DNA of 46,890 nt from Elusimicrobiota bacterium. Its GTDB lineage: Bacteria > Elusimicrobiota > Endomicrobiia > CG1-02-37-114 > JAHJSO01. A program made the position numbers and the translations under genes. Within the stretch, counting starts at the first letter, position 1. Each line of letters opens with the position of its first letter. This document shows, in pieces, positions 4,001-19,077 of the stretch. A model generated the notes under the pieces. That model saw nothing but the letters and a program-made list of their open reading frames with translations. It did not search any database and had not been told where the DNA came from. The stretch spans positions 1 to 46,890 of the forward strand of contig JBDRQF010000017.1 of assembly GCA_043826435.1 (NCBI GenBank). The letters run 5' to 3'.

Positions 4001-7000
4001 TTTCCAATGAGGTATCTCTGACCTGGTGAAAGTGTAATATCTGGTAAAGAAATACTGAATAACACCGTAGGAGGGGCGGCGGTTCTATAGTTAAGTTTAA
4101 GTCCATTGAGAAACAAATTGTTGTTTGTAACATTCATAAGTTCTATATATTCATTATTGCTGCCTTTGCCAGAACCATCAAAATTAAATCCCGAAGTGGT
4201 AATTTCAGAGATTAAAAGCCACCAGACAGTTCTGCCCGCAGGGCCGCCAACAGGCAGGTTGGTTGGCATCCCTCCTACATAACCCTTTTCATCAACTGCT
4301 TTTATAGCAAAGTAGTATGTAGTTCCTGGTTGAAAGCCCTCTAACAGGTATTGCTCTGTCTGGCCAACAAATTTTGGCGCCCAGAACTGTAAATATGAAG
4401 CAGCATTCTTGAAGTGGGCTTCTGTGGTTATCTGGTATGTCGCATATTTAACAAGATAACTCACACACCTGCTGCTGACGGTGGCGCCGGCAGTATATCC
4501 ATCATCAGAAACCGCTGTCCACCCGAGAGACAATTTACCGGCGGTATTTGAAGAAGTATATAACAGGTCCTGTATAGCGCCAGGCGGGGTGGTGTCGGGT
4601 GATTGTGCGGGGTATTTAGTGTTTCTCGGGCTGCGTCTTTTAATATAAACATCATTAAGATTATTATTGGTGTCGTGCCTGTGGCCAAAACCGGGCATCG
4701 CCTCGCCAGGTTTCCTTTCATTGGCATACGCTTCCATAGCAGGTGGTACCAAAGCGGGCTTTGTTTCTGCTTCGGTGGTACCCCTTGTGCCGTCATCCCA
4801 GCAAACTATATCATAATATATAGGCCCAGCGCCGCTGCTTCTGGGACGCAGCCCGCCTCCTGATGTTGAGAATGAATATGGCTGGGCAATTAGCCGGACA
4901 TAGTCGGGTGAGGTAAATGTGCCATCGTCCCCGTAACCACCACCAGTTCCGCCCATACCGGCTCCATATGCCTGTGCAGGCAAATCAGTTCCATAGGCAT
5001 AGTCGGTCGTCCATGCGATAAGAAAATAACTATATGCTTTAATGGTGCTGCCGGCTGGTAATCCGGTTGTGTTACCGTAAGTAGGAATATTGTCAGCCCA
5101 GGCCCCTGTGGCTGACTTATATTGGATATTCCATCCGCTTATGTCTATATCGGCATTGGTCGGGTTATATAATTCAACAAAATCATCTGCGTCCGCCGCA
5201 ACCTTTCCTGCTCCTTTTACCCAACCCATCCCGCTCTGGGCGACCTGACTGATTACAACGGTACTACCTGCCACCGGCTGCCATCTCCCCGCAGGGGCGG
5301 ATGGGCTGTTGGAGATTGTACTCTTGTTGCCGGAATCATCTACTGCAATAACATTGAAAAAAAATGTAGCGCCGGGCGTAAGCCGTGCCACATAGAGTTG
5401 TTCGTTTATTCCGGCTGGCATTGGCATCCAGTTATTAGGATAGTCGGTCGCTGAATTAAAGAGCGCCTGGGTGTTTATCGCCACATTGGTCCAGCGGACT
5501 ATATAATATGCAGCCCTGCCTTTATTGCCATCATCCCCCGGGGCTGCGAAATTAAGTAAAACAGCGCCATTAAAATATCCATCAGTGGCGGAAAGTGAAA
5601 CGGTTGCAGGCGGGGTAACATCCCCTGCATCTGTTGGCAGGAGTTGCGCATAGTCAGAGAAGCGGCTCTCATCATAGTCGGTATCATAAGCAGTTACCCT
5701 GTAATAATAGGTTACACCATTTGTAAGTCCTGTATCGCCATATGAGTTGGTTTTGGTTCGGGATATCTCCTTAAATAACATATTGGACCTTGTTGAACGA
5801 TATACAACATATCCCATAAGGCTTGACTCATCTGCATTTTGGGTCCAATCAAGCACTGCTGAACCATTCCCCGCTGCGCCGATAAGACCCTGTGGCTGTT
5901 TTGGTGACCGTAAACTCTGTGGCGTAGGCGGGGAAGTAGAGGTTGAAAAATCAAAATCAACAGAGTTGTTGTTCTGGTCCTGATTTGTCATTAACCAGGA
6001 CTTGCGGTAAATACTTCCCCAGGAAGGGATTGTCCGTGGATATACACTGCCTTCGGGTGTATCGCCATTCCCCCATGCAACTCTGTCAATTTCTGTACTA
6101 ACTGCATTCAATATACGGAAATTTCCACCAGTAAGAGGAACATCCACATCCGTTCCCCAGGTTAAATCAGGGGTGGCGCCGCTTGCAGGGGCAGTGTAGG
6201 TGCCGTTGAGTGGCTTTGATGAGTGGGCTATAAGATAATATTTTTTCGCATATAAGGTGGTACCTGCTGGCACTGCGGATATTTGTCCCCAGGCGCCACC
6301 AGATGCAATTTTGTATTCCAGTTTGTAATTTGAAATGTCTATTGAGTTGCCCGTCGGGTTATAAATTTCCACATACTGGTCTTTTGAACCGCCAGGACCA
6401 TCAGCGGATATTTCGGTAATCTTTACTGAGGCAGGCCTTATGCCGTTTGTTATCGCCTTCACTTCATTTCCCCATCTTCTTTCATCGGTGTTGCTGGTTT
6501 TTGCTGTAATTCGGTAATAATATGTTGTTCCGGGGTCAAGATTGGCAACCGTATAGCCGGGGGTGGATGAAACCCTTGTAACATATTTGTATATACCGGA
6601 TGTAGTGGGAGGGGGTGCGGCCCAGAGCGATTTGCCCCCTGCTGTTGAGTCACCACCCGTACCGGTCGCCCAGAAAACATCATAACCATTAACATTTTCC
6701 GTTGAGAAGTTCGCTGTCCAGTCCATCGCTATTTTGTCATAGTCCTGCGGCGTTCCTGCAAGGTTTTTTGGCGGGGATGGAGGCGGATAGGCGTTTGGCT
6801 TTTCTGTATCGCCAACCACATTTGTTGCGGTGTAAGTGGGGTTGTTGCCGCCACTACCATACACATTATCCCTGTACACTGCATAGTTGCCTTCTTTATC
6901 AGCAACGACGGTGACATTCCAGTCCAGGTCAACTCGGTAGTTTATTCCGCCTGCCACTCTTATTCTTTCCAGAACCTCCTGATAAGGATGCCAGTCACCG

Positions 7001-7836
7001 CGGCGGGGTGCAGGTGTTATTCCATATTTTGGTTTAAGAACTGCCAATAGTTCAGGGGAGTTTGAATGTTTTGAACCGTGGTGGTGTAGTTTGTATATAT
7101 CGGTCCCTTCCAACATTTCGGAATAATATTTAAGTAACTCTGCGTCAACCTTTGCCAATGCACCTGAATTTCCAGCGGTTGCATCACCACCAAAAAGAAA
7201 TGTGCTCTTGCCATACCTGAGATGTATAACCATTGATATATTATTGGGATTTGTCTCTCCCCATGGGTCGGCATTTGCTATCCATAAAACTTTTGCTGAT
7301 ACATTAGGGTCCCAACCAGGCCCTAAGTTTGTGCCAGGACCGCTCAGGACATCTCCCCTTACAGGATTATATAAGGCTCCTGCTGCGATAGATACCTGTG
7401 AGCCTATTGTTGAGCCACTTTTATAGACAGAACCTATTGTATATGTCCCATCCAGGTCACCTGCAAGTCCTGCGTTGTGGTCGCCATGCGGATGTGTTTC
7501 AACTACATAGTGCAAGGTACCGCTTGCACCTATTTTTGCTAACATCAACTCCATCAGAGGTCCACCGGTGGCGAGGCCCCCACCATCAATCAAAACACTT
7601 ATATCATCCCCTACGCGTGTACCTCCAATGGGTGTGTTAAGAATGCCGTCCGCTCCGGGAAGTTCTATGTATATAGAGTCATCAAACCTGTACAGAGTAT
7701 TGGGCGCCATGTCCCTTGTAGTGTGTATATAATAAACCCTCATGTATTTTGAATGAATAAGGGATGGGATAATAAAGGACTGAATAGCAAAAAACAACAC
7801 TAAAACGGGAATAGTTCGTATTTTTTTATTTATCAA
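1..7836 (-). CDS. Giant secreted multidomain surface protein; 5' part only, C-terminus lies beyond the window edge. It has a signal peptide and an N-terminal metallo-beta-lactamase-fold domain, then alternating fibronectin type III and lamin-tail (LTD) domains.
   Basis: Manual translation of the minus strand from TTG at 7836..7834 gives MINKKIRTIPVLVLFFAIQSFIIPSLIHS, a good signal peptide. An in-frame ATG lies at 7743. The frame stays open to base 1, so there is no stop in the window and it is absent from the ORF track. Every minus-strand ORF the track lists in 1-7800 is in a different frame. The translation shows MBL motifs (ETHPHGDHNAG, LHHHGSKHS), LTD motifs (DQYVEIYNPTGNSIDISNYKL, DDFVELYNPTNADIDISGWNIQY) and many FN3 signatures (LSWTAPGDDG, GTTYYFAIKA, YYIRVWAADE). 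Confidence 0.75.
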   Translation of the reverse strand, partial: MINKKIRTIPVLVLFFAIQSFIIPSLIHSKYMRVYYIHTTRDMAPNTLYRFDDSIYIELPGADGILNTPIGGTRVGDDISVLIDGGGLATGGPLMELMLAKIGASGTLHYVVETHPHGDHNAGLAGDLDGTYTIGSVYKSGSTIGSQVSIAAGALYNPVRGDVLSGPGTNLGPGWDPNVSAKVLWIANADPWGETNPNNISMVIHLRYGKSTFLFGGDATAGNSGALAKVDAELLKYYSEMLEGTDIYKLHHHGSKHSNSPELLAVLKPKYGITPAPRRGDWHPYQEVLERIRVAGGINYRVDLDWNVTVVADKEGNYAVYRDNVYGSGGNNPTYTATNVVGDTEKPNAYPPPSPPKNLAGTPQDYDKIAMDWTANFSTENVNGYDVFWATGTGGDSTAGGKSLWAAPPPTTSGIYKYVTRVSSTPGYTVANLDPGTTYYYRITAKTSNTDERRWGNEVKAITNGIRPASVKITEISADGPGGSKDQYVEIYNPTGNSIDISNYKLEYKIASGGAWGQISAVPAGTTLYAKKYYLIAHSSKPLNGTYTAPASGATPDLTWGTDVDVPLTGGNFRILNAVSTEIDRVAWGNGDTPEGSVYPRTIPSWGSIYRKSWLMTNQDQNNNSVDFDFSTSTSPPTPQSLRSPKQPQGLIGAAGNGSAVLDWTQNADESSLMGYVVYRSTRSNMLFKEISRTKTNSYGDTGLTNGVTYYYRVTAYDTDYDESRFSDYAQLLPTDAGDVTPPATVSLSATDGYFNGAVLLNFAAPGDDGNKGRAAYYIVRWTNVAINTQALFNSATDYPNNWMPMPAGINEQLYVARLTPGATFFFNVIAVDDSGNKSTISNSPSAPAGRWQPVAGSTVVISQVAQSGMGWVKGAGKVAADADDFVELYNPTNADIDISGWNIQYKSATGAWADNIPTYGNTTGLPAGSTIKAYSYFLIAWTTDYAYGTDLPAQAYGAGMGGTGGGYGDDGTFTSPDYVRLIAQPYSFSTSGGGLRPRSSGAGPIYYDIVCWDDGTRGTTEAETKPALVPPAMEAYANERKPGEAMPGFGHRHDTNNNLNDVYIKRRSPRNTKYPAQSPDTTPPGAIQDLLYTSSNTAGKLSLGWTAVSDDGYTAGATVSSRCVSYLVKYATYQITTEAHFKNAASYLQFWAPKFVGQTEQYLLEGFQPGTTYYFAIKAVDEKGYVGGMPTNLPVGGPAGRTVWWLLISEITTSGFNFDGSGKGSNNEYIELMNVTNNNLFLNGLKLNYRTAAPPTVLFSISLPDITLSPGQRYLIGNTYSDADLGNGYVEPFCGPTPDMTYSNVEGTNDYGGHWELVNAANKTIDLIGWGNASAPEGIAAPTMSKKSLQSIERKPLGSNSLDTNNNGTDFEITTLRNPQSIAAPARVQNLNATGRNAKVELMWTDNTEPDLVGYRLYRSTYYEGPYTWIQTISKVNNTYTDTAVTNNVGYYYGMCAYDSEAPVKLGQISNIAFAMPYVSDDVIPPGKINTISGIPGADIAQIRLFWKAPGDDDYSVDLDVYPNCGYVLKYATFPISTEVLFNHVSASTYTQTWSPAQVNQQEDKTLSDVAYGGGGYFTPGTTYYFAIKAYDEKPNYATLSNCATVYAQTQTDFTAPAKIANLAGSPGTGSGEVNLTWTAVGDDGNSGTAKSYVLKYALSAIDTDTKFNNASAYSQTWSPLPSGQTENKTLVNMSPGTTYYFAIKAGDDAHPTTPNYGPLSNCATTYAGMDSILPGMVNTLTALPGSDTGSIQLSWIAVGDDGNTGTAQKYLVHYSTTSNILSESAFNAADTHGQLWTTASAGTAESKVIQNLMPGVIYYWAIRAVDEADNRSPIWTNANTNWTAATSASNTLYFRDGLPEEPAPDTTQSSGYTDTSSWARRTMAVSQGSTIITVGNNVVATKIALRSFVSPALAAQAMPSGTWTIYSWGDEPYTTSNSNHQAEVYIWSPGDTYDISVGISAASAELGTAAAERSYTIAAGAAGAITEGSKIVLEIWTDADYTNAVNQNFYYNEATRNSRVILPWAPSWPGAGGDTTPPAAVADLSAIRGGSEGTIAISWTAPGDDGNSGLAAAYLLKYATYNITSNTLFNQAGEWSQTWTPLAAGQTESKTIGPLTPGVTYYLSIKTRDEVPNWSVRSNTVFSPAKEGSAPPPGDTTAPSAVTNLSALTGATGGEVRLSWTSPGDDGMSGNLPSGGQYKIQHSTWTGVTWSYNSAQVTISTSNVAPGAKQTYVIGGLTSGATYYFRLWTADEVPNWSGISNGATTYAQVDIVAPSAITNLSALTGAVEGEVRLSWTSPGDDGMSGNIDGGWFKVRYATYSVDWAGAGWGDYQNKYEINIPTSTTPSASQWRILTGLRGGVTYYIRVWAADEVPNWSGISNGATTYAQMDMTAPSAITSLGGTQGTVEGEVRLSWTSPGDDGMSGNIDGGWFKVRYATYSVDWAGAGWGDYQNKYEINIPTSTTPSQSQWRILTGLRSGVTYYIRVWAADEVPNWSGISNGATTYAQTDKIAPSAITNLSALTGAVEGNINLAWTSPGDDGMSGNIDGGWFKVRYATYSVDWAGAGWGDYQNKYEINIPTSTTPSQSQWRVLTGLRNGVTYYIRVWAADEA

Positions 7837-8660
7837 TATGGTCTACCAAAAAACCTTTTTCGGACCTGATGGTCTGTTTCGCCTGTGTGCTCCCTTATTG
7901 CTCTGACAAGGGCGGCGATAACAGTTGGGTCTTTCTCTATCCTTAAGGCATTCTCCAGTGTTTCTTTTGATTGTTTTGTTTTTATGTCCGCTAATTGAAT
8001 TGCAGCGGTTCGTCGGATAAAAGGGTCAGCGTCTTTAAGATAGAAAATGACTGTATCAAAGCCCTCTTTAACATTTAATTTTGCAAGCGCCTGTGCGGCG
8101 TATAATTTTAGGCGGGTCACTTTTTCTGTTCTCACTACCCGGGTTAAAAGCGGGATCGCCTCTTTTGCCTCAAGGTAACACAAAACATTCAGTGCAAGTT
8201 CCCTTATTTCCGTTTCAGAATCATTCATCACCGGCTCAAGGACAGGAATTATGGATAGGTCTCTCACCCTCTTTTCATTCCCGGGTGCATGCGCTGCTGA
8301 AAGGGCGAGGACAATGGGCAGGCGGGTATTATAATTGGAAGTATAAAGCGACTCAATAAGTTCCGCTCTTGCGTCTGAATGCCTTTCTGCGATACTGCGA
8401 AGTACCTCATAAAGCGAAAAGCCCATTTCATCGCCTGCCCTTGCAATGTTGCCGTACCACACCCTCCAGTCAATTATTTCAAGGGCGGAAATAACCTCGG
8501 GCAGTGCGCTTTTACCTTCAGAAATTAGTTGGGACATAAGTTGCGGAGGGATTGAGTCCTTGCGGGTGTACATATCCAGCCGATTTGACGCGGCGGTTAA
8601 ATTAGAAACAAAAAAACAAAACACCGACAAAGAAACGGTGAAGAAAATAAACTTTCTCAT
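7833..8660 (-). CDS. Secreted or periplasmic HEAT-repeat (PBS-lyase-like) protein.
   Basis: ORF 7833..8702. Start moved to the ATG at 8660 (MRKFIFFTVSLSVFCFF signal peptide, preceded by GGTGGA), because a TTGACA-17-TAAAAT promoter lies inside the longer ORF version. HEAT-like repeats are visible: ETEIRELALNVL, DPFIRRTAAIQLADI, LYAAQALAKL. The TGA stop overlaps the TTG start of the giant gene within ATTGA. Confidence 0.65.
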   Translation of the reverse strand: MRKFIFFTVSLSVFCFFVSNLTAASNRLDMYTRKDSIPPQLMSQLISEGKSALPEVISALEIIDWRVWYGNIARAGDEMGFSLYEVLRSIAERHSDARAELIESLYTSNYNTRLPIVLALSAAHAPGNEKRVRDLSIIPVLEPVMNDSETEIRELALNVLCYLEAKEAIPLLTRVVRTEKVTRLKLYAAQALAKLNVKEGFDTVIFYLKDADPFIRRTAAIQLADIKTKQSKETLENALRIEKDPTVIAALVRAIREHTGETDHQVRKRFFGRPY

Positions 8661-8673
8661 GGAACGTCCACCC

Positions 8674-8702
8674 ATTTTACCATAATATATTTTTTTTGTC
8701 AA
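8674..8702 (-). promoter_or_regulatory. Sigma70-type promoter, TTGACA (8702..8697) - 17 nt - TAAAAT (8679..8674).
   Basis: Exact consensus -35 with a 17-nt spacer and a near-consensus -10. The ATG at 8660 with a GGTGGA Shine-Dalgarno follows. Confidence 0.5.
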
Positions 8703-8827
8703 GTAGTCGCCCGAAAATTTTTGAACTGAAAATTTTCACGCCCGGCTTTTCGCCCCGCTATTATTATACCTTATAACGGGTAAAAACAAGGTTAATATCG
8801 GGTAAATTTTAGGTAAATTCTTTTCTT

Positions 8828-11809
8828 CTACTTCTTTCTTATAAAGTCGGATGCTTTTCCGGGTGAGTCCATAAACCACAGGTCATACTGTCCTTTCAGC
8901 ATCTGCGGGGTATCAACGACAATTTTATCCATCTCCGGGAGCGCCTTTTCAATGGTCTCTAAATAAAGCCGTGCACGCGTTGCGCCGCGGCCCAGCCAGT
9001 ATGAGCGGACAACCTTTTCAAACCTATCGGACTCTCCCACCGCCTTTTGTATCCTTTCAACGCCGTAACCGTGCGCCTCGTTCACCATTTCTGCAAATCT
9101 CCCTTCCGACCATGGGATTGCCTCGTTAAAATATCCGCGTGATTCATTTATCAGCCGGTCCATATCCTCCCGGGCGCTAAATACATCCCTGAAGGCGGGC
9201 ACAACTTCAACCGGCGGATGGATGTCTTCAAGCAGGACATTAAGGACTTCAACCCCGACCTCGTAAGCATCAAGAAAGCCCTGTATTTTTCCTTTGATGA
9301 ATCCCTGCAGGCGGCTCCTTTCAATGGTAAGGATATCGTCCAGAGGAATCCCCGCAATGGTCTCCCGTGTGACGGATTCGCTTAACCTATGGATTATCTC
9401 CACCGGCTTGTTGGTATTAAAAACGAAATCATAGGGCGTCCTGACCCGCCACTGGACAACCAGGTTAACGTCCAGCAGATTTTCATCGCCCGTTACAAGG
9501 ATGGCTTCCTCAAGTTTTTTTTCATACATACCGTAAATATGCAAACTTTCCCACAGGCGGACCCTTTCCGCTATTTCAGGCGTTATATCCCGGACGCCTG
9601 CCTTTGACCTGAACCCTATTTCCATACGCCTGACACCTTTCGTATTCACCTTTATTATTTTCTCAAATGGGTAAGGCAGGCAATACTGCAATCCCTGACT
9701 GACAACCGGTTTAACGACCTTGTTAAACCGCAGTTTAATGCCCTGCTCGTCAATGTTTATTATGTAAAAACCCGAAAAGACATATAAAACAGCAACTGCG
9801 ATAACGCACCATTTAATGATTATTTTCCTGTTGGTCTTAATAAACTGCGCATATTTTCCCCATTCAGGCATGATATTCCATCCGGTTAATTCCCAGAATT
9901 TGCGTTTAAGTTGTTTAAACTTCTCAATGAGCAACCTTGTAAGACGGCGGTAATTCAGCAACCTTGAAGAGTTCAGGGTTACAATGACGGTTGCAACCTC
10001 GTGCAGGAGGACGCCTGTCAGCATGTTCAGGGCGCCCATCGTCGCGGCAATTATCATGCCAAAAGAAGATATAAACGCTATCCAGAGATTCTGGTGTATT
10101 ATCCTTCTGGTCTTCCTGCCTATAACCACGACATCCGATATTCTTGTAAGGTTGTCGCTCATAAGGGCGACGTCCGATGCGACCAACGTAATGTCCGTAG
10201 CCGAAACGCCCATCGCTATACCTACGTTTGCAGTTGCAAGGGCGGGCCCGTCGTTTATACCGTCACCGACCATCGCTACCCTGTGGTTTTCGCTTATAAT
10301 CTGCCGGATTTTTGCAACCTTGTCTTCAGGCATCTGGTTGGCGATGACTTCGTCAATACCCACTTCCTTCGCCACGGCGGATGCAACGTACTGGTTGTCG
10401 CCCGTTGAGAGTATGAACCTTGAAATACCTAATTGTTTAAGGGCGGCTATCGCCTGCCTTGATGTCTCGCGGACAATGTCCGCAAGGGTTATGATACCGC
10501 ATATTTTGTCATCATGGGCTATGACCAGGGCTGTTTCGCCCATTTTTTCCCTGCTGTCAACATAATCTTCAACGTTAGGGGGGACAGGGACGCAGCAGTC
10601 CTTCATTATTCTTCTGTTCCCCACAATAACCCTTGCCCCGCCTGAAGTTATTACAACCCCCATGCCTTTCCTGATTTCAACCGTATCGGGTTTCTTAACC
10701 GGGACGTCTTTTTCTTTTGCGTAAAGGACTATCGCCTGGCCCAACGGGTGTTCGGACAAACTCTCCGCTGTGGCGGCAAACGAGAGCAATTCCTGCTCTG
10801 AGTGCGAACAGAACCTCTTTATTGCAATTAGTTTTAGTTTACCTCTGGTGAGCGTGCCTGTTTTATCAAATATAAACGTATCCAGAATGCCTACGGATTC
10901 AAGGGCTTCGCCGCCGCGGATAAGTATGCCCTGTTTCGCTGCACTGGTAATGGCGGCAATTACCGCACTCGGAGTGCCTATGACAAAGGCGCAGGGACAA
11001 ACGATAATAAGAAGGGTTATCGCCCGGATTATATCGGAGGTTATAAGATATACAATGCCTACAAAGATAAGCGTAATTGGTATAATCCATATCGCGTACC
11101 TGTCAACAAGCCGGGCCGTGGGCGCCTTTTTCTCAAGCGCCTCCTCGGTCATTTTCTTGATTTTGACAATCGTGCTCGCCTCACCTACATTGGTGGCTTT
11201 TATCTCAATCGTTCCCGTTTCAACTATCGTCCCTGAGATAACGGTGTCGTCCAGGGTTTTATCAACCGGGACAGATTCCCCTGTAATCTGAGCCTGATTC
11301 ACGACTGCCGAACCATAGACAATTACGCCGTCAACGGATATCCACTCTCCTGATCGGACAATAACAATATCGCCTTCCCGCACATCAGAAAGTTTCACCT
11401 CAACGATGTCCGTCCCCTTACGCAGGGAAACCCTGTCCGGCAACAAACTCAGGAGTTTTTCAAGTTCCCTGCGGGCTTTCTCCACCGTGTAATCCTCCAT
11501 AAAATCGCCCAGCAGGTGAATAAACAGGACGGTGGCGGACTCCATCGGGTAACCGACTATTACGGCGCCGATTGCAGCCATACTCACAAGCGTATCAATG
11601 TTAAGGGATTTTGAAAGGAGGTCGCGGATTGTAATCGTAAGGACGGGTATTATGCCAAGCGCAAAACCCGCATACGCAAATATTTTTGACAGTCCTGTCC
11701 GGCCTGTGAGGAAAAGTATCCATGACGCCAGGACCAAAACAAACAGGACGATAGCGAGTATCTTTTTGAGTTTTTGTTTTATCGGAACTGATATTTTTAT
11801 GGGTGACAT
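8828..11809 (-). CDS. P1B-type heavy-metal P-type ATPase fused at its C-terminus to an HflK-like SPFH/band-7 domain.
   Basis: ATPase motifs TGES, CPC (IVCPCAFVIGTP), DKTGTLT and GDGINDGPAL. No N-terminal metal-binding domain. After the last ATPase transmembrane helix there is another helix, then a prohibitin-type domain (YIINIDEQGIKLRFNKVV...) like the HflK encoded downstream. The ORF track starts at a TTG at 11848 inside a GC hairpin. I chose ATG 11809 (MSPIKISVP); the start remains uncertain. Confidence 0.7.
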   Translation of the reverse strand: MSPIKISVPIKQKLKKILAIVLFVLVLASWILFLTGRTGLSKIFAYAGFALGIIPVLTITIRDLLSKSLNIDTLVSMAAIGAVIVGYPMESATVLFIHLLGDFMEDYTVEKARRELEKLLSLLPDRVSLRKGTDIVEVKLSDVREGDIVIVRSGEWISVDGVIVYGSAVVNQAQITGESVPVDKTLDDTVISGTIVETGTIEIKATNVGEASTIVKIKKMTEEALEKKAPTARLVDRYAIWIIPITLIFVGIVYLITSDIIRAITLLIIVCPCAFVIGTPSAVIAAITSAAKQGILIRGGEALESVGILDTFIFDKTGTLTRGKLKLIAIKRFCSHSEQELLSFAATAESLSEHPLGQAIVLYAKEKDVPVKKPDTVEIRKGMGVVITSGGARVIVGNRRIMKDCCVPVPPNVEDYVDSREKMGETALVIAHDDKICGIITLADIVRETSRQAIAALKQLGISRFILSTGDNQYVASAVAKEVGIDEVIANQMPEDKVAKIRQIISENHRVAMVGDGINDGPALATANVGIAMGVSATDITLVASDVALMSDNLTRISDVVVIGRKTRRIIHQNLWIAFISSFGMIIAATMGALNMLTGVLLHEVATVIVTLNSSRLLNYRRLTRLLIEKFKQLKRKFWELTGWNIMPEWGKYAQFIKTNRKIIIKWCVIAVAVLYVFSGFYIINIDEQGIKLRFNKVVKPVVSQGLQYCLPYPFEKIIKVNTKGVRRMEIGFRSKAGVRDITPEIAERVRLWESLHIYGMYEKKLEEAILVTGDENLLDVNLVVQWRVRTPYDFVFNTNKPVEIIHRLSESVTRETIAGIPLDDILTIERSRLQGFIKGKIQGFLDAYEVGVEVLNVLLEDIHPPVEVVPAFRDVFSAREDMDRLINESRGYFNEAIPWSEGRFAEMVNEAHGYGVERIQKAVGESDRFEKVVRSYWLGRGATRARLYLETIEKALPEMDKIVVDTPQMLKGQYDLWFMDSPGKASDFIRKK

Positions 11810-11820
11810 TTTAATAGTGT

Positions 11821-11848
11821 CATTGCGAGGGGCGAAGCCCCGAAGCAA
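11821..11848. repeat. GC-rich hairpin motif, copy 1. On the minus strand it reads ATTGCTTCGGGGCTTCGCCCCTCGCAAT, an ATTGC/GCAAT outer stem plus a GGGGC-TTC-GCCCC inner stem. It lies 12 nt upstream of the ATPase ATG.
   Basis: A second copy sits at 41547-41576. The motif is palindromic, so it would fold in transcripts from either strand. Confidence 0.5.
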
Positions 11849-11900
11849 TCCCCCTGTCTTATGCGTGCAACATCATACACATATTCGCACGTCCCTTATG

Positions 11901-12746
11901 CTAATTATTGCACCGTTCTTTCAGATTGTCTATTAACTGTCCTATTGTTAACGGGATTTTATTCCCGTCACCCTGAATTATTTTCAAGTCCATCATTTTC
12001 CAGAATAATTCAACCACAACGGGCGGGCTGAAATTTTTATTGTTCAGGACGTTCCTGTCCTTAAAAAAATCGGCGGGGGCAGAACTTGCCTTTACTCTGC
12101 CGGTATCCAGAAATACAAGTTTATCAACAAAACCAGCCAGACGGTTCAAATTAAACGTGGTTAGAACGATCGTTAGTTTTTCTTCTTCATTCAGTTTTTT
12201 CAGAAAATCCAGCAACCTTGTCTCCGAATCAGGGTCAAGCGGACTTGTCGGTTCGTCAAGCAGAATAATCTCGGGTCTCATTGCAAGGACGCCTGCAATC
12301 GCCACCTTCTGCTTCTGACCGTAAGAAAGGGTATGTACGGGAGAGTCCCTGTTTTCCGTCATGCCAATAATTTCAAGCGACTCATCAACCCTTTCCCTGA
12401 CCTTATCTTCCTGTAAACCTAAGTTCATCGGGCCAAAAGCAATGTCCTGAAATACGTTTGCTGAAAACAACTGGTCGTCCGGGTTCTGGAATACAATGCC
12501 TATCTTTGAAAACCTCTCTTTTTCATCTATACCCAGAATGTCCTTACCTTCAAGCAGTACCTTGCCGGACGACGGTTTATAGAGGCCGCACAGCGTGTTC
12601 AGCAGGGTGGTTTTGCCGCTCCCATTGGGGCCGTATATACAAACGACCTCGCCTTTTTCAATATTTAATGAAATATCGTTAAGGACAAACGGGCCAGGAG
12701 CCCCTTCATACTTGTAACACAGATTTTCCGTTCTTAATACTTCCAT
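11901..12746 (-). CDS. ECF/cobalt-type ABC transporter ATP-binding protein (EcfA/CbiO-like).
   Basis: Walker A GPNGSGKTTLL, signature LSYGQKQKV, Walker B ILLDEPTS. Length and C-terminus fit the CbiO/EcfA family. Confidence 0.8.
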   Translation of the reverse strand: MEVLRTENLCYKYEGAPGPFVLNDISLNIEKGEVVCIYGPNGSGKTTLLNTLCGLYKPSSGKVLLEGKDILGIDEKERFSKIGIVFQNPDDQLFSANVFQDIAFGPMNLGLQEDKVRERVDESLEIIGMTENRDSPVHTLSYGQKQKVAIAGVLAMRPEIILLDEPTSPLDPDSETRLLDFLKKLNEEEKLTIVLTTFNLNRLAGFVDKLVFLDTGRVKASSAPADFFKDRNVLNNKNFSPPVVVELFWKMMDLKIIQGDGNKIPLTIGQLIDNLKERCNN

Positions 12747-12805
12747 ATATTATTCATTATATTATTCATTCTAAAAATCGGGTTTTTTAGAACCATACTC
12801 ATCAC

Positions 12806-13567
12806 TCATTTCAGCAGGAACAATACAAAAGCAATCGCCACTGACACAAGAATGAATCTGAAATCATAGTCAGTAAGCCGCTTCGGCGCCAGAAAGTACA
12901 TATCCCCCCTGTAACCCCTGGCGCTCAATGCGCGCTGAATCCTTTTACCCCTGTCATAAGACCTTAAAACAAGCATCCCGCCCAGTACTCCCAGCGATTT
13001 TATTTTCCTGCTGAAAGAAGCATACCCCAAACGGATCCGCTGAGCGAACATTATTGCCGACGCCTCCTCAAAAAGGACAAATATCTGCCTGTACATAAAG
13101 GTGGTGATTTCGGTGAATACCCTCGGCAAACCGAAATTTTTTAATGTCTGCATGGACTCCTCAAACGGGATTGAAAATGACATCGTTATAATCAACGAGA
13201 CGCCGCCGATAATCCTGAAAAATATACCTATGCCTTTCCGTAGCCCCCCGCTGTAAGCGACGACGTTGAACACCGTGAAAACCGGCTCGCCATCACGGAG
13301 CAAAAACATCTGCGTTACGATGACGAAAAAACCGATAACCGCAGGAAAAATCATTCTGTAAACGAATGCCCGGAACGGAACTTTTAATGAAAACATAATT
13401 GCGCCCGACAGGGTAAGGATTAACAGCGGCACAATGTCCCGCGTTGAAATCAGGTTAAGAAAGAGCAAAACAATCGCAAAAACAAATTTTACCCTGGTAT
13501 CAATCCTTGAAAACCAGTTATCCCTGTTACACGCGCTCCCGAAAATGTGTCCTGCAAGATGGGTCAT
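12806..13567 (-). CDS. ECF transporter transmembrane T component (EcfT/CbiQ-like).
   Basis: Polytopic membrane protein of about 250 aa directly upstream of the EcfA-like gene. No S component or second ATPase is present in the window. Confidence 0.7.
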   Translation of the reverse strand: MTHLAGHIFGSACNRDNWFSRIDTRVKFVFAIVLLFLNLISTRDIVPLLILTLSGAIMFSLKVPFRAFVYRMIFPAVIGFFVIVTQMFLLRDGEPVFTVFNVVAYSGGLRKGIGIFFRIIGGVSLIITMSFSIPFEESMQTLKNFGLPRVFTEITTFMYRQIFVLFEEASAIMFAQRIRLGYASFSRKIKSLGVLGGMLVLRSYDRGKRIQRALSARGYRGDMYFLAPKRLTDYDFRFILVSVAIAFVLFLLK

Positions 13568-13568
13568 T

Positions 13569-14579
13569 TTATTTTATTACGGGCAAGTTTGAAGACTCAT
13601 CGTCAAACATCAGGAATTTCAGGTCAAGCCCGCGCCGTCCGCTTAAAGGGTCAACGATATAGAGTTTTATGTTCGGCATCAACTCTTCCATTGTCTCAAG
13701 ATAAAGCCGTGTTTTTGTAGTGTAGGGCGACCTGCTGTATTCGCTCCTGACGGCATAAAAACGGCTGCTGTCTCCCATTGCCATGTTTATTCTTTCCACA
13801 TGGTACGTTTTCGCCCCTTCAACAAGGACCTGGGCGTTACCGTATGCTATCGGAATTGCCATGTTTGCATACCCCTCGGCCTCGTTGATAAAACGAACCC
13901 TGTCCGCCTGGGCGCTTATAACTTCATTAAAGGAATCCAGTACCTCCTGCGGTGGAATTACCGTTTCCAGCGTAACCGAACGAATCTGGATGCCCGCATT
14001 GTACCTACTAATGGTTTCCTGGGAAACGCTTTTGACCATTTCCTGCACTCTGATTTTTTCAACAGTGAGGACGCTGTCAACGTCCATCCCTGCAACAACC
14101 TTGCTCATCGCCGCCCCCGCTACGTAGCCAAGCAGTCCCCGGGGGTCTTCGCAATTAAAAAGATAAGATGCCGGCTCCAGTATTGTGTATTGTACCATGA
14201 AACTTACGTGGATGAGGTTTTCGTCTCCTGTAAGTATGTCCTCTATTTTTTTGAAATCTTCCTTTTTTAACGGGTCTTTGTAATACCCGACAATTATCCT
14301 CTTTATCTCCTGGACAGGGACCTTGTTCAGGCGTTCAACAGGCCAGGGCAGGCGGTAATGTATGCCGGGCATTATTTTGTCCCTGGCAACCCTGCCGAAC
14401 CTTCTCACAACGCCTTGTTCCTCCGTTTGCACAATGTATAAGCCCGATATTATGTAAAGAAAAACGAGCCCGTATATCGCAAGGAGCATCGGGCTTAATT
14501 GCAACCTATAGATAAACCTTTTAAAATTTTGAATAAAATTGCTGATAAAGACAGACGAAAATTCTTTTATCTTTTTCAT
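13569..14579 (-). CDS. hflK: HflK-like SPFH (band-7/prohibitin) membrane protein.
   Basis: N-terminal transmembrane helix, then an SPFH domain (YIVQTEEQGVVRRFGRVARDKIMPGIHYRLPWPVE) and a coiled C-terminus typical of HflK. Confidence 0.75.
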   Translation of the reverse strand: MKKIKEFSSVFISNFIQNFKRFIYRLQLSPMLLAIYGLVFLYIISGLYIVQTEEQGVVRRFGRVARDKIMPGIHYRLPWPVERLNKVPVQEIKRIIVGYYKDPLKKEDFKKIEDILTGDENLIHVSFMVQYTILEPASYLFNCEDPRGLLGYVAGAAMSKVVAGMDVDSVLTVEKIRVQEMVKSVSQETISRYNAGIQIRSVTLETVIPPQEVLDSFNEVISAQADRVRFINEAEGYANMAIPIAYGNAQVLVEGAKTYHVERINMAMGDSSRFYAVRSEYSRSPYTTKTRLYLETMEELMPNIKLYIVDPLSGRRGLDLKFLMFDDESSNLPVIK

Positions 14580-14632
14580 AAACTTTCAGTGCAGTATTTA
14601 TTCCCCCGTCCGACCCCGCCCTTGTGCCCCTC

Positions 14633-15694
14633 TTATTCCCCGCCGCCTCTTGTCAACACCTTAAGTAGTTCCGAATCAGCAGAAAGGACCATAGTCGTTT
14701 TCTTTTCAAATATCTTCTTATACGTCTCCAGAGTGCGCCAGAACTTGTAAAAATTTACGTCCAGGTTGTGCGCCCTTGTATAGATTTTTGTGGCTTCCGC
14801 ATCGCCTTCCCCCTTGAGTTGTTCGGAAATACGGTATGCATCGGAGATTATCTCCCTCTTTTTGCGGTCCGCCTCTGCAACTATTACCATCCCCCTGCCT
14901 TTACCCTCTGCCCTGTATTTTTTGGCTATCTGTTCCCTCTCGCTCCTCATCCTCCTGTAAACGCTCTCTTTCGTCTGCTCGGGCAAACTTATCCTCCTGA
15001 ACCTCGTATCAGCGACATTTATGCCGTACTGTGCCTTAGATACCGCATTTATTTTTTCAATAACACCGGCTATTATCTCGTCCCTTTTGATTTCATCGGG
15101 ATTTACCGATATTATGGCTGAAAAGGGGTAAGACCCGATTGACGCCCCTATCTCCGAAAGGACCAGGTCCGTCAGGCGGATTTCAGCCCCGGCCCTGTTC
15201 CTGACCGTCTCAAGAAACCTGCGCGGATCACTTATCTTCCAGCACACGAACGCCTCAAGGGTGAGGTTCTTCTTGTCGCTTGTGAGGAACTCCCCCGGCC
15301 TGAAATCTATGGACAGTAACCTCTTGTCAAAATAATGGAGAACGTGCAATGGCGCCGGGAGTTTTACTTTTATCCCCGGTTCCGTAATCGTCCGGACGTA
15401 CCTGCCGAACTGGGTTATTACGGCTATTCTGGTTTCATCCATAGTGAATATCATGGAATTCAGGACAAGGAACACCAGGACTGCGGACACCCAGAAAACA
15501 ATCTTTTGTTTTTTGTCAAACACCCTGTATTTTTCAATTAAGGGGTTAATCCGGCTGTTGAGTTTCATTATCCCCCGCTCCAATAACCTGCCAAGCGGGA
15601 TTAAAATCTTAGCCAGCATGTCCAACAAAAGTTTAAGTTTTGATTTTAATAAATCAGATTTTGGATTCTTATCTTCCCTGTCATTCTGAACCAT
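14633..15694 (-). CDS. hflC: HflC-like SPFH membrane protein.
   Basis: The SPFH domain follows a transmembrane helix (ITQFGRYVRTITEPGIKVKLPAPLHVLHYFD). Start set at ATG 15694 (MVQNDRED) because a strong AAGGAGGA Shine-Dalgarno lies 9 nt upstream. The ORF track starts at 15718. Confidence 0.7.
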   Translation of the reverse strand: MVQNDREDKNPKSDLLKSKLKLLLDMLAKILIPLGRLLERGIMKLNSRINPLIEKYRVFDKKQKIVFWVSAVLVFLVLNSMIFTMDETRIAVITQFGRYVRTITEPGIKVKLPAPLHVLHYFDKRLLSIDFRPGEFLTSDKKNLTLEAFVCWKISDPRRFLETVRNRAGAEIRLTDLVLSEIGASIGSYPFSAIISVNPDEIKRDEIIAGVIEKINAVSKAQYGINVADTRFRRISLPEQTKESVYRRMRSEREQIAKKYRAEGKGRGMVIVAEADRKKREIISDAYRISEQLKGEGDAEATKIYTRAHNLDVNFYKFWRTLETYKKIFEKKTTMVLSADSELLKVLTRGGGE

Positions 15695-15774
15695 TCGGGT
15701 AGTCCTCCTTGTGTGCAACTACTCACTGAAATCTGTCATTGCAACCGTTGTCACTGCAACAATTGTCGTTTGGA

Positions 15775-15803
15775 ATTTTAGCAAATCGGGTTTCAAATGT
15801 CAA
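15775..15803 (-). promoter_or_regulatory. Sigma70-type promoter for the hflC operon, TTGACA (15803..15798) - 17 nt - TAAAAT (15780..15775). The -35 hexamer sits inside a REP-like repeat copy.
   Basis: Consensus hexamers at exact spacing, about 80 nt upstream of the hflC start. Confidence 0.5.
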
Positions 15804-15905: not shown

Positions 15906-17111
15906 CTAACCGCTCCGCTGCCACTGCTTCGCATTGACCAGACATTCCTTCAGCAACAGAAGAAACAATCCCCTGTCTATTTTCCTGATTCCGTCAACCT
16001 CTCCTATAATGACGTTCGGCGATAACACCAGCGAGTAATAATTGGAAGCCGTTTCCAGGTGCAAGGAGTTAGCCACACATTCAAATGCACTGCGGGTAAC
16101 GAGGAAAGGCGGCGGCCCGAAAAAGGCGGGCTCTCTCTTTCTGCGGTCCTTTACAACCCCAATCACCCCTCTGATTTCTGCGGGCGTAATGCCGTCTTTC
16201 AGGACTACATAAGTGTATTCGCGGGAGTGTGATTGTATGACCGACAGAATGAGACCGTCTGAATTATTTATAGTATCTTCCATTTCTTTCCAGTTTTGGT
16301 TGCTTCTAATTTTAAATCCTTCATCATATCCGATAAAAATTTCTTTTGACAGCCGTTTCGCATAATTATCAAGGAGGAGTATCGCGGAAACATAAGCCCT
16401 TTCATGACCCCCGGAAGCCGTAACGTCTCCGGAAACTGCAACATCCCCTCCAGCCGCCACTTCCACACCAGCCTCAACGTCCCCGCCAGCCGCGACGTCC
16501 CCGCCGTTAATAAAACCGCCTGCTGTTTTGGACATATCCGCAAACGCCTTTTTATATATGTGGCTTTCCCTTCTACTATTTTTCAATCCATCAAGCCAAA
16601 AAAAACGAACTATATAATGATACGATTTTAACATCTCATTAAAAACATCCATTTTATGTTTTCTCTCATTTAAGACATACTCGGGGACATTTAACTTACT
16701 GCCGTATAAAATTTTCCAGTTATTTTTTATTTCCAGCGCCCTGATGTCGCCATGCATGGCATAGTCATTAAGTTCTCCCGCGGTTGACACCTGGACCTCC
16801 CCGAGGAACGGCAAATATCTTTTCCAGAAATTATACTTCTTCCAAAAACTTTTAAGGAAGTTCTTCTCTGCATCGGGCTCCATTTCGTCAATCAGCACAA
16901 ACAAATCAATGTCGCTGTAACCAGGTGCCCACTTGCCGGACACCATGCTCCTCCTTGAACATATCGCTTTGATTTCTTTGTATCTTTTTATCCGGGAGAC
17001 AACCAGATTAAGCCCCGCAACATAAACGGCTTCGTATGCCTTCCTGAAAGCAGGCACCCCGTTTGTGCCTAAAACAAAACCCTCAATTATTCTTTTTAAT
17101 ATCCGGCTCAT
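15906..17111 (-). CDS. Nucleotidyltransferase-fold domain protein with an internal Gly/Ala/Asp/Val low-complexity insert.
   Basis: GYSDIDLFVLID resembles the Pol-beta/MNT-type GS-x-DxD nucleotidyltransferase motif. Start trimmed to ATG 17111 (MSRILK), which overlaps the upstream radical SAM stop as ATGA. The longer ORF would overlap that gene by 118 nt. Confidence 0.55.
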   Translation of the reverse strand: MSRILKRIIEGFVLGTNGVPAFRKAYEAVYVAGLNLVVSRIKRYKEIKAICSRRSMVSGKWAPGYSDIDLFVLIDEMEPDAEKNFLKSFWKKYNFWKRYLPFLGEVQVSTAGELNDYAMHGDIRALEIKNNWKILYGSKLNVPEYVLNERKHKMDVFNEMLKSYHYIVRFFWLDGLKNSRRESHIYKKAFADMSKTAGGFINGGDVAAGGDVEAGVEVAAGGDVAVSGDVTASGGHERAYVSAILLLDNYAKRLSKEIFIGYDEGFKIRSNQNWKEMEDTINNSDGLILSVIQSHSREYTYVVLKDGITPAEIRGVIGVVKDRRKREPAFFGPPPFLVTRSAFECVANSLHLETASNYYSLVLSPNVIIGEVDGIRKIDRGLFLLLLKECLVNAKQWQRSG

Positions 17112-18139
17112 TTTTTGCCGACGACGGCGCTGTTCAGCATATACCCTGCGGCGCAACACAGCCAGCAATGACATTCCCTCTTCCCGAAGAACTCTCTTAA
17201 TTTGTCCGCCTTTTCTGAAAACCACAGGTCATCAAATTTTTCCTTTTTGATATTGCCGATTGTCTTATCCTTGTGGACGGGGCACATATAAAGGCCGCCG
17301 TACGGGTCAACCATCGCAAATTTCTCGCCGCAGGGGCAATCTTGAAAATATCTTTTGGGCTGTTTAACATATTTAAGCAAATAATGCCACGGCAAAAGCG
17401 GGTAAATATCCCCTGTTTCTCCATAAATCGCCTGCATAATCTTCCGGACCTGTTTATCCACTGTTCTTAATTTGTCTTCCGTCCATAACATTCTTTTTAT
17501 ATCCCTTTTTTGAACAAAAACCTGAAATCCCATATTCCATTTTTGTTCTTTTGCCTTTTGATAGACCGGCAAAATCTGATCGTAATTCCCCGGCGACAGA
17601 GTGAAGGTAAAGGTTATATGGACAGGGAATGTTTTCTTTATCGTGTTAACGGTATTTAATAAACGCTCATACGCCCCTCTTTTACCCCTTATTCTGTCAT
17701 GTCCTGTGCCAATGCCGTCAAGCGATGTCCCAAGTAAAATTTTGCCGACGGGGACTTCCGTAAATATCTCCCCGAGTTTTTTTAATATGATACTTTTATT
17801 CATCAGGTTGCTTAAAATGATAATTTCTGCATCCGGGGATGCCTTTGAAAAGAACCTGCATATTTCAACGAAATCATCCCTTAGCCACGGTTCTCCCCCC
17901 GAAAGGATTACCCTTTTTACGTTTTTCAGGTATCTTGACTCCCGGACGAATCTTTTAATTTCCGTAAATTTAATCTCGTCTTTTTTGTCTTTTTTCTTCC
18001 ACAACTCGCACATCACGCACCTTGAATCGCACCTGTATGTCACTTCTAAGTGTAATTCTTCCGGGGGTGATTTCCGAAGCGGCCCCCTGGGAATATTCTT
18101 TTCAAGTAACGAACAGAGAGCGTCCAGCATTTTTTTCAT
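17108..18139 (-). CDS. Radical SAM enzyme with a C-terminal SPASM-type auxiliary Fe-S domain.
   Basis: CDSRCVMC CxxxCxxC cluster near the N-terminus. Cys-rich C-terminus: CPCGEKFAMVDPYGGLYMCP and CHCWLCCAAGY. Confidence 0.8.
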   Translation of the reverse strand: MKKMLDALCSLLEKNIPRGPLRKSPPEELHLEVTYRCDSRCVMCELWKKKDKKDEIKFTEIKRFVRESRYLKNVKRVILSGGEPWLRDDFVEICRFFSKASPDAEIIILSNLMNKSIILKKLGEIFTEVPVGKILLGTSLDGIGTGHDRIRGKRGAYERLLNTVNTIKKTFPVHITFTFTLSPGNYDQILPVYQKAKEQKWNMGFQVFVQKRDIKRMLWTEDKLRTVDKQVRKIMQAIYGETGDIYPLLPWHYLLKYVKQPKRYFQDCPCGEKFAMVDPYGGLYMCPVHKDKTIGNIKKEKFDDLWFSEKADKLREFFGKRECHCWLCCAAGYMLNSAVVGKK

Positions 18140-18147
18140 GTGATGAT

Positions 18148-19077
18148 TTAGTCCCGTGCTTCCGATCTCAATCCGGAGATATCATTCCTGTTATTTTCAA
18201 AGGTATTGTCTATTATTTCGGATTTAGCGTTGTTTATACAGGCGATCGCCCCTTCATTGTCGGAAAATTTATTGGATTCAATAACATTCCTACTGTTATC
18301 GCGGCAGAAAACACCCAATTTATTTTCTGTTATTCTGTTGGATATTATTTTTGTAACCGCATTATGGCAACATTCAATGCCTATTATCTTGTTCCGGGAG
18401 ACATCGCAATTTTTAACTTCCAGCAGGCAGTTCTCATTGGTCCGTATTCCACGGTCATTGCCATTAATAAAACTTCTATCAACTTTAACTTCCAACTTAC
18501 CGCAACACTCTATCCCGACTTTATTTGACTCTATCTCGGCGGACATTAAAACAAGAACACTTTCGCCTGCCGTAAAGACACCGGTTTCGTTGTGCCGTAT
18601 TGTGTCTTTGACAGACGACAGGCGCGACCCGGAATGCAAACTTAACCCGTATATGGTATTATTATTTATTTCATTGCCGGAAAGGTTTATGGACGCGGCG
18701 TCCTCGGCTGCAATCCCGGCTTTATTATTTATAATCTTGCTGTTCTGTATTTCAAGACGGGATTTCCCCCGGCAGTTTACCGCCACCATTTTACTGTGTT
18801 TTATTTCGCAATGTCTTAATATAGAGACCTTATCGCCGGAAAATTCCATTCCCCCCCGCCATGACTTATTGCCGATTATAATTTCCCTGTGTTTTTCACC
18901 AATGGCAACCAGTGTACCTTTAACAATTATGTCACATCTTTCAGGAGACAGGAAAAATATCCATGTTCCCGGCAGGACAGTTACGGTTACATTCTCCCGT
19001 ATGACCAGGGAACCCGATATATAAACCTCCCCCGACCATGTCTCGTTTTGTTTAAGTTCGCCCTTGATAGTTTTCAT
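18148..19077 (-). CDS. Right-handed parallel beta-helix repeat protein (pectate-lyase/NosD-like fold).
   Basis: Regular N-rich repeats of about 22 aa (NNKAGIAAEDAASINLSGNEINNN; NKVGIECCGKLEVKVDRSFINGN; NKIIGIECCHNAVTKIISN). No signal peptide. Confidence 0.6.
   Translation of the reverse strand: MKTIKGELKQNETWSGEVYISGSLVIRENVTVTVLPGTWIFFLSPERCDIIVKGTLVAIGEKHREIIIGNKSWRGGMEFSGDKVSILRHCEIKHSKMVAVNCRGKSRLEIQNSKIINNKAGIAAEDAASINLSGNEINNNTIYGLSLHSGSRLSSVKDTIRHNETGVFTAGESVLVLMSAEIESNKVGIECCGKLEVKVDRSFINGNDRGIRTNENCLLEVKNCDVSRNKIIGIECCHNAVTKIISNRITENKLGVFCRDNSRNVIESNKFSDNEGAIACINNAKSEIIDNTFENNRNDISGLRSEARD

Follow-up and report, generated by a model that had tools for sequence, protein, structure and literature searches.

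The contig analysed here, 46,890 nt long and assigned by NCBI to an Elusimicrobiota metagenome-assembled genome (MAG), is called the window throughout. Its minus strand carries five closely packed open reading frames (ORFs) between positions 15694 and 8828: hflC, hflK, cbiQ, cbiO and a gene that fuses a P1B-type ATPase, a metal pump, to an HflK-like SPFH module. We write this module as HflK' and the encoded protein as P1B-ATPase::HflK'. All five ORFs had been listed in an earlier note on the same DNA, and our ORF check found each of them on the minus strand where that note had placed it (Table 1).

Table 1. Features of the fusion operon, with positions in the window and residue numbers in the fusion protein (TM, transmembrane; ECF, energy-coupling factor; ABC, ATP-binding cassette; AF2, AlphaFold2; pLDDT, predicted local distance difference test).
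Feature	Position	Strand	Details
Sigma-70-like promoter candidate	15775..15803	-	TTGACA-17-TAAAAT, extended -10 TG, 11/12 consensus; upstream of hflC
hflC-type SPFH gene, 353 aa	14633..15694	-	TIGR01932 209.9 bits (cutoff 134.4); Band_7 6e-27
Free hflK-type SPFH gene, 336 aa	13569..14579	-	TIGR01933 225.7 bits (cutoff 159.4)
cbiQ, ECF T component, 253 aa	12806..13567	-	TIGR02454 152.8 bits (cutoff 111.8); Pfam CbiQ 9e-38
cbiO, ECF-type ABC ATPase, 281 aa	11901..12746	-	ABC_tran 3e-36; TIGR01166 211.8 bits, exactly at the cutoff of 211.8
Fusion gene P1B-ATPase::HflK', 993 aa + stop	8828..11809	-	E1-E2_ATPase, Hydrolase and Band_7 (Pfam)
Pump part, residues 1-618	9956..11809	-	Helices MA, MB and M1-M6; A, P and N domains
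M4 CPC motif, residues 271-273	10991..10999	-	Read in the translation
M6 HEVAT motif, residues 603-607	9989..10003	-	Aligns with sCoaT HEGST (7qbz alignment)
Basic cytoplasmic linker (predicted), residues 619-660 (~43 aa)	9830..9955	-	13 Lys/Arg against 3 Asp/Glu; AF2 helix 622-642
Extra TM helix, residues 661-687	9749..9829	-	Hydropathy peak 2.26; AF2 helix 661-678
HflK' ectodomain, residues 688-993	8831..9748	-	SPFH, ~70-residue coiled-coil helix (867-939), second helix, C-terminal beta-strands
Clade-specific insertion, residues 730-768 (EIGFR...YEKKLEE)	9506..9622	-	Follows an RR pair aligned to E. coli HflK Arg141/Glu142; partly low pLDDT

The read-through that joins pump and SPFH module is genuine, as judged from an independent, near-identical assembly without indels and from the persistence of the junction in divergent homologs. 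JGI contig Ga0180009_10029071 (L088) spans window positions 8052-12095 at 99.83% identity, with 7 substitutions and 0 gaps, and a third assembly, Logan contig L172, reproduces the upstream half of the operon (hflC-hflK-cbiQ-cbiO). The fusion is retained in at least 25 divergent full-length homolog clusters. In homologs of 31-38% overall identity the junction keeps the same layout, with M6 running into ...LNSxRLL, a linker of ~40 aa, the new TM helix and the SPFH domain. A sequencing or assembly artefact, a recent frameshift or a non-functional accident, a general possibility raised in the earlier note and one that the frameshifted copies at some related loci (L017, L077 and L108) would favour, has a negligible probability given the indel-free L088, the evidence of L172, a junction kept in over 25 clusters and intact catalytic motifs. 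The frameshifted or split fusion genes lie at 10124-12025 in L017, 5221-6864 in L108 and 7982-11011 in L077. An apparent HflK'-HflC read-through among these loci probably reflects faulty assembly or a copy in decay.

Domain searches of the C-terminal part confirmed its SPFH/band-7 character, with a match to Band_7 and, over residues 694-981, a score of 194.8 bits against the hflK equivalog model TIGR01933 (cutoff 159.4). When compared with E. coli HflK (7vhp) using phmmer, the module gave an E value of 6.5e-34 and covered HflK residues 82-344. The extra TM helix corresponds to the N-terminal signal-anchor of HflK, aligning with the TM helix of the E. coli protein from about residue 82. The earlier description of an additional TM helix leading into HflK-like sequence thus stands, although its term prohibitin-type domain was too narrow for a full-length HflK homolog. 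AlphaFold models of the whole fusion (pLDDT 81.2) and of the module alone (88.0) both contain the SPFH alpha/beta domain, the long helix, the second helix and the C-terminal strands. The top Foldseek matches of the module-only model were HflK chains (7vhq_E, 9cz2_XA, 9paw and 7wi3_B; E ~1e-21), and these outranked HflC, stomatin, erlin, prohibitin, QmcA and flotillin among its PDB matches. The C-terminus of a P1B pump lies in the cytoplasm and the linker fits the positive-inside rule, from which we infer a periplasmic HflK' ectodomain and the same topology as in E. coli HflK. A net positive charge is also seen in the linkers of all three classes of fusion described below (P1B, cation diffusion facilitator (CDF) and ArsP), with medians of +4.5 to +6. 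The stretch that runs from the RR pair to TGDEN is longer in fused HflK' modules (median 41 aa) than in free HflKs (24-26 aa).

The fusion recurs far beyond this genome. We searched 1.84 billion cluster representatives with a profile of the C-terminal module and inspected the best 150. Among these 150 were at least 25 full-length and ~17 truncated P1B::HflK' clusters, many proteins of 530-660 aa combining Cation_efflux (CDF) with Band_7, and one ArsP_1 permease with Band_7. Fusion loci were mapped with a local ORF/BLAST script in species-representative genomes and JGI metagenomes. This gave 61 loci with the HflK-like clade at an exporter C-terminus, the exporter being a P1B-ATPase in 48, a CDF protein in 11 and ArsP in 2. 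Hosts include Fervidibacter/Armatimonadota, Planctomycetota, Eisenbacteria, Zixibacteria, Abditibacteriales and Bryobacteraceae. Where at least 3 kb of downstream sequence was available (n = 45), hflC adjoined the fusion in 35 loci and free hflK was present as well in 32. In the window both free proteins pass their equivalog models, which bears out the claim that the fusion is co-encoded with HflC and HflK, and the neighbours at L002 pass the HflC and HflK equivalog cutoffs too. The conserved unit is therefore exporter::HflK' with HflC and HflK, found across phyla and in three unrelated exporter families. Gene order in the window (hflC-hflK-cbiQ-cbiO-pump) differs from the usual pump-hflC-hflK. 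The fusion is no isolated oddity, and the ECF genes, which had been taken as part of the architecture, lie outside the conserved unit.

Several variants of the cassette were observed. CDF::HflK' fusions were seen in proteins P0125, P0141-P0143, P0146, P0162, P0182 and P0216 and at loci L005-L007, L009-L011, L019, L025, L027, L084 and L116, and hflC and hflK usually come after them. The CDF::HflK' fusions gave no match to the ZT_dimer cytoplasmic domain, and the SPFH module appears to take the place of the CDF C-terminal domain. The ArsP_1-type permease::HflK' fusions (P0230; L049 8849-10999 and L063 2813-5023) have adjoining hflC and hflK. In L016 (Fervidibacter sacchari PD1, NZ_CP130454, 7934-16993), L100, L104, L106, L107 and L149 a lineage that includes a cultured strain, the fused pump has no hflC or hflK alongside, and some fusion ORFs of this group are longer at the N-terminus (1248-1276 aa). 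A protein of ~160 aa is encoded directly after hflK in 15 P1B loci of Fervidibacter and Planctomycetota (for example L002 15530-16033, L008 5653-6123 and L071 6099-6668). This conserved protein starts with a TM helix, continues into a soluble domain and carries the motif PYGTPV(F/K)G at its C-terminus; no Pfam or NCBIfam model matched it, and the window lacks it. Immediately upstream of P1B::HflK', nine Fervidibacter/Armatimonadota-type loci (for example L001 984-3953, L002 6977-9934 and L023 147-3335) encode a protein of ~987 aa with weak DUF3604 and BNR-like matches and no homolog in the window. Clustering of the ORFs neighbouring the cassettes revealed no recurrent ftsH or metal regulator.

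A neighbor-joining tree separated HflK from HflC with 100% bootstrap support. The co-operonic free HflKs, including that of the window, formed their own clade (78%), and the fused modules of all three exporter classes clustered together in the best tree (52%), which is suggestive of a single origin of all fusions. Three clean HflK lineages were not upheld at bootstraps of 52-78%. The fused and free HflK copies of the window are old paralogs, as they are only 33% identical to each other.

The earlier note had described a complete P1B-type ATPase, and this was borne out: the translation contains TGES, CPC, DKTGT and GDGINDGPAL, and the protein scores 540.5 bits against TIGR01525 (heavy-metal P-type ATPase; cutoff 346.25). 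AF2 pLDDT is ~85-93 across the pump part, and the predicted helices fit eight TM segments before the linker. By sequence the nearest solved structure is the P1B-4 ATPase sCoaT (7qbz, 4.5e-110), followed by ZntA (4umv, 9e-93) and CopA. Foldseek likewise found the pump fold to resemble ZntA, sCoaT and CopA; the top matches of the full-length model were 4umw, 7qbz and 7r0g, a search in which the ATPase part dominates and the SPFH part is uninformative. Across 26 aligned fused pumps Cys271 and Cys273 of M4 are invariant, the motif being CPC in 25 and CSC in P0173, and His603 of M6 is invariant as well.

We compared these M4-M6 residues with the P1B subgroups. The CopA-type (P1B-1, Cu+) signature comprises Tyr-Asn in M5 and Met-x-x-Ser-Ser in M6. 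This type was rejected for the window pump, whose M5 reads FISSFG without Tyr-Asn and whose M6 has His at the Met position. A ZntA-type (P1B-2) pump was rejected too, as alignment to 4umv puts Ser at the position of K693 and His at that of D714. P1B-4 ATPases are marked by SPC in M4, HEGxT in M6, eight TM helices and the lack of a classical metal-binding domain (PMC8880997). Like members of this group (sCoaT, 7qbz; the CzcP, CtpD and PfeT class), the window pump has eight predicted TM helices and no N-terminal metal-binding domain, there being no HMA match in Pfam and MA starting at about residue 8. Unlike them it has CPC rather than SPC in M4. Its M6 motif HEVAT (His-Glu-x-x-Thr) agrees with HEGxT in part, retaining His, Glu and Thr with Val in place of Gly; most other fused pumps have HQxxS. 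The pump is thus closest to P1B-4, with a hybrid CPC / HE..T signature. Reading the substrate from these signatures, as had been proposed, narrows the subgroup to P1B-4-like but leaves the specificity uncertain. The cargo is most likely one of the divalent transition metals handled by P1B-4 pumps (Co, Zn, Cd, Ni or Fe) and not Cu(I).

The closest non-fused relative of the pump (45% identity) is found in Victivallales (L085 6857-12169; L086) and has an HMA domain. Its gene immediately follows feoA-feoB-feoA-feoC and is close to a czcCBA-like RND system, so pumps of that clade may serve iron or another divalent metal.

The components of the operon belong to known families. The window HflC, free HflK and HflK' all score above the NCBIfam equivalog cutoffs, and HflK' shares with the E. 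coli HflK/HflC-FtsH system (7vhp, 7wi3, 9cz2 and 9paw) an SPFH domain, a long helix, C-terminal strands and an N-in single-TM topology, the last of these inferred here. The differences lie in the presence of three SPFH paralogs rather than two, in a whole metal exporter that replaces the short cytoplasmic N-terminal tail of HflK, in an insertion of ~39 aa directly after the Arg141/Glu142-equivalent of HflK' and in the lack of any linkage seen here to ftsH, hflX or hfq. SPFH-NfeD operons (E. coli QmcA-YbbJ, 8z5g) also pair a dedicated SPFH operon with a membrane partner, and QmcA is among the structural matches of the module. In the cassette, however, a fused transporter takes the role of partner, and the type of SPFH protein is HflK/HflC, not stomatin/QmcA; a domain scan of the operon proteins and their immediate neighbours found no NfeD domain. 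We know of no P1B subgroup with a C-terminal TM and SPFH extension. The earlier note had not recognised the architecture as a described one, and in line with this our full-text literature searches aimed at fusions of SPFH/HflK with metal exporters found no description. Public labels read 'heavy metal translocating P-type ATPase', 'Cu+-exporting ATPase' or 'HflK' only. As far as we can tell, the covalent client-scaffold fusion and the three-paralog cassette, common to three exporter families, are new.

The reading we favour, with a probability of about 0.5, is that the cassette builds a client-tethered SPFH microdomain that controls confinement of the pump and probably its turnover. The microdomain-based control or quality control suggested in the earlier note is a reasonable hypothesis for which precedents exist. 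HflK' would pair side by side with HflC, as HflK does, and free HflK would take the remaining HflK positions. The resulting periplasmic ring or cage of the HflK/C type would bear a limited number of pumps at its membrane belt and restrict them to an SPFH-bounded patch of membrane. This patch could control the lateral mobility of the pump, its lipid environment and its exposure to FtsH, which would subject a potentially dangerous metal exporter to turnover or quality control. All cage-building elements (TM helix, SPFH domain, 70-residue helix and C-terminal strands) are confidently predicted by AF2. In E. coli, FtsH sits within HflK/C and its substrates include the P-type ATPase MgtA, and HflK/C is thought to concentrate FtsH together with its substrates (PMC13220708). 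FtsH touches the E. coli assembly through HflK only, at Arg141, Glu142 and Arg185 (PMC13220708). In our alignment the fused clade keeps basic residues at the positions equivalent to Arg141 and Arg185, and engagement of the assembly by FtsH is possible. That transporters can be SPFH clients follows from the human stomatin dome, which encapsulates AQP1 and UT-B (PMC12407830; PDB 9zd2). Like the cassette as we picture it, the dome (9oh9, 9zd2) is an SPFH oligomer that holds a transport protein in a delimited patch. Its client is held non-covalently or via lipids by a homo-oligomer on the cytoplasmic face, whereas in the cassette one of three paralogs carries the client covalently, and the predicted dome would be periplasmic.

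A number of observations weigh against a tethered microdomain of this kind. The Glu142-equivalent is Arg, a charge reversal, and the clade-specific insertion falls on the FtsH-contact loop itself, so that FtsH could bind differently or not at all. Conservation across the three contact residues gives a mixed picture at this divergence. No ftsH recurs near the cassettes and none is present in the window. The Fervidibacter sacchari-type lineage, which accounts for most exceptions to the conserved unit, has a fused pump without adjoining hflC and hflK. Monophyly of the fused clade stands at 52% bootstrap, with the relations of the three HflK groups unresolved. On the side of the pump, an M5 Asn conserved in 25 of the 26 fused pumps is missing from that of the window, and the cargo assignment is weak because of this absence and of CPC instead of SPC in M4. 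The pump could sit inside or outside the ring, and assembly, interaction, stoichiometry and activity are all predictions.

A simpler alternative is that the SPFH trio merely oligomerises the exporters, for stability, polar localisation or cooperation with outer-membrane efflux, with FtsH and proteolysis uninvolved. We consider this unlikely. It would suit cassettes that have no linked ftsH and a contact-loop insertion that is longest in the fused clade, and the CDF fusions, which seem to have lost their dimerisation domain, could have gained a replacement oligomerisation function in HflK'. The basic nature of the R141- and R185-equivalents is then harder to account for, and the conserved free HflK would dilute the pumps, which is unexpected if maximal clustering were the aim. 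P1B pump activity, moreover, is not known to require oligomerisation.

The ECF genes of the operon bear on another alternative, namely a cobalt/nickel homeostasis unit in which a cbiQ-cbiO importer module and a P1B-4-like exporter handle the same metal under one promoter and the SPFH proteins coordinate both. As the earlier note had stated, these genes encode T and A components only, with no S component. CbiQ passes its equivalog cutoff and has the SARGY coupling motif, and an identical protein is named CbiQ by NCBI in an Elusimicrobiota MAG. CbiO has the Walker A motif GPNGSGKT, the signature LSYGQ and the Walker B motif ILLDEP; it scores ~241 bits with ECF_ATPase models, under their cutoffs. 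The nearest relatives of CbiQ (37-39% identity) lie in cbiM-(N)-cbiQ-cbiO operons within cobalamin clusters. In favour of a shared metal are this ancestry, the resemblance of the M6 HE..T of the pump to Co/Zn-type P1B-4 and the start of cbiQ 1 nt past the hflK stop codon. In the L016 group (Fervidibacter), moreover, the fused pump is followed at a distance of 2.6-4.4 kb by genes for an ECF S-component, FmdE, CbiM, CbiQ and CbiO. This proximity is confined to one lineage, however, and unrelated genes intervene.

The ORFs of the 46.9-kb window gave no match to CbiM or ECF_trnsprt, and tblastn with Fervidibacter CbiM and ECF-S gave none at E <= 1. Among the 61 fusion loci, cbiQ-cbiO is found within the cassette in this lineage only. 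A metagenome scan with the window CbiQ found no relative, the insertion being seen solely in the near-identical assemblies L088 and L172. Co-expression of an importer and an exporter of one metal would also be futile. We therefore hold a joint cobalt/nickel unit to be distinctly doubtful, and a cobalt/nickel theme of the operon is weakly supported. The cbiQ-cbiO pair is homologous to and as intact as its counterparts in the group-I CbiMNQO/NikMNQO systems; it differs from them in lacking CbiM, CbiN and an S-component in the operon and in having hflC and hflK upstream of cbiQ. We treat it as an intact ECF energising module of cobalt/nickel ancestry and a lineage-specific insertion into the cassette, with its S-component sited outside the window, if anywhere.

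The assumption of one promoter needs qualification. The earlier note had the operon headed by a single promoter at 15803-15775, and this site is a real, if predicted, consensus match. That it is the sole promoter is not established, as a second promoter-like site is present at 11932-11904 (minus strand; TAGACA-17-AATAAT with TG, 10/12), overlapping cbiO at its 3' end, a short distance upstream of the fusion gene. The 91-nt spacer between cbiO and the fusion gene holds a hairpin, GGGGC-TTC-GCCCC (11829-11841, minus strand). Given this hairpin and the promoter-like site, the fusion gene may be regulated separately. An Rfam scan of the whole window returned no matches.

A periplasmic containment chamber was also considered, in which a dome of HflK', HflC and HflK encloses the periplasmic face of the exporter. 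Metal would be pumped into a closed nano-compartment, a 'metal vault' for the sequestration, buffering, hand-off to a partner or dedicated metallation of metals and metalloids. If true, SPFH cages would gain a compartment function independent of FtsH. All three fused exporter families move metals or metalloids outward, the ectodomain retains every cage-forming element, and 15 P1B cassettes add the membrane-anchored ~160-aa protein after hflK. P1B-4 pumps release free ions outside (PMC8880997), and a closed cage is possible for E. coli HflK/C, although the native assembly is reported to be open and nautilus-like (PMC13220708). Nothing places the pumps inside the ring, however, and we noticed no metal-binding motifs in the ectodomains. 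By a rough estimate the lumen is so small that few ions would bring it to millimolar concentration, opposing export. Both the chamber and its use as a vault are, in our view, improbable. An anti-phage defence function was rejected, as PADLOC gave generic P-loop/ABC similarity for CbiO only and none for the fusion, CbiQ, HflK or HflC.

How SPFH assemblies such as HflK/C, prohibitin, stomatin, flotillin and erlin affect the membrane proteins that they surround is a long-standing question, and their clients have usually been identified indirectly. In the cassettes a client has been joined covalently to a cage subunit repeatedly in evolution, in three exporter families, with a dedicated HflC and a second HflK kept alongside. 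This Rosetta-stone-style evidence suggests that HflK/C-type assemblies have metal exporters among their genuine clients and points to control of bacterial metal homeostasis at a level not recognised before. The cassette may offer natural access to the effect of SPFH cages on their clients: as a defined three-gene system for cryo-electron microscopy and biochemistry, it would allow the position and stoichiometry of the client to be read directly. It also marks a P1B subgroup with CPC and an invariant M6 His.

Two of the gene starts differ from the mechanical ORF calls. For hflC the ATG at 15694 is likelier than the TTG at 15718 (mechanical ORF 14633-15718), because an AAGGAGG Shine-Dalgarno sequence lies 8 nt before it and the independent contig L172 has a 353-aa call. 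For the fusion gene the ATG at 11809 (993 aa) is likelier than the TTG at 11848 (mechanical ORF of 1006 aa), since the independent gene call of P0001 uses 993 aa.

Several other features of the window were noted. Downstream of the fusion gene, a HEAT-repeat gene (7833-8702) encodes a HEAT/PBS-lyase-like protein with a signal peptide, and 3 of the 7 substitutions between the window and L088 cluster at 8674-8689, in a promoter-like site of this gene. Beyond it, a region of ~7.8 kb that had looked gene-free holds a giant ORF of >2614 aa (1-7842, minus strand), which is missing from the ORF list because it runs off the left edge. It has a signal-like N-terminus, an HPHGDH (metallo-beta-lactamase-like) motif and long, near-identical tandem repeats of ~110 aa. 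Upstream of the operon (15906-19077, minus strand) a 439-aa nucleotidyltransferase-like protein with a Gly/Asp/Val-rich repeat is encoded by a gene overlapping a radical-SAM/SPASM gene (17108-18139), which is followed by a beta-helix/NosD-like gene (18148-19077); together these may form a peptide-modification cluster. Finally, the ORF at 38656-39606 (minus strand) contains both an IS200-like Y1 transposase domain and a DnaA C-terminal helix-turn-helix domain.

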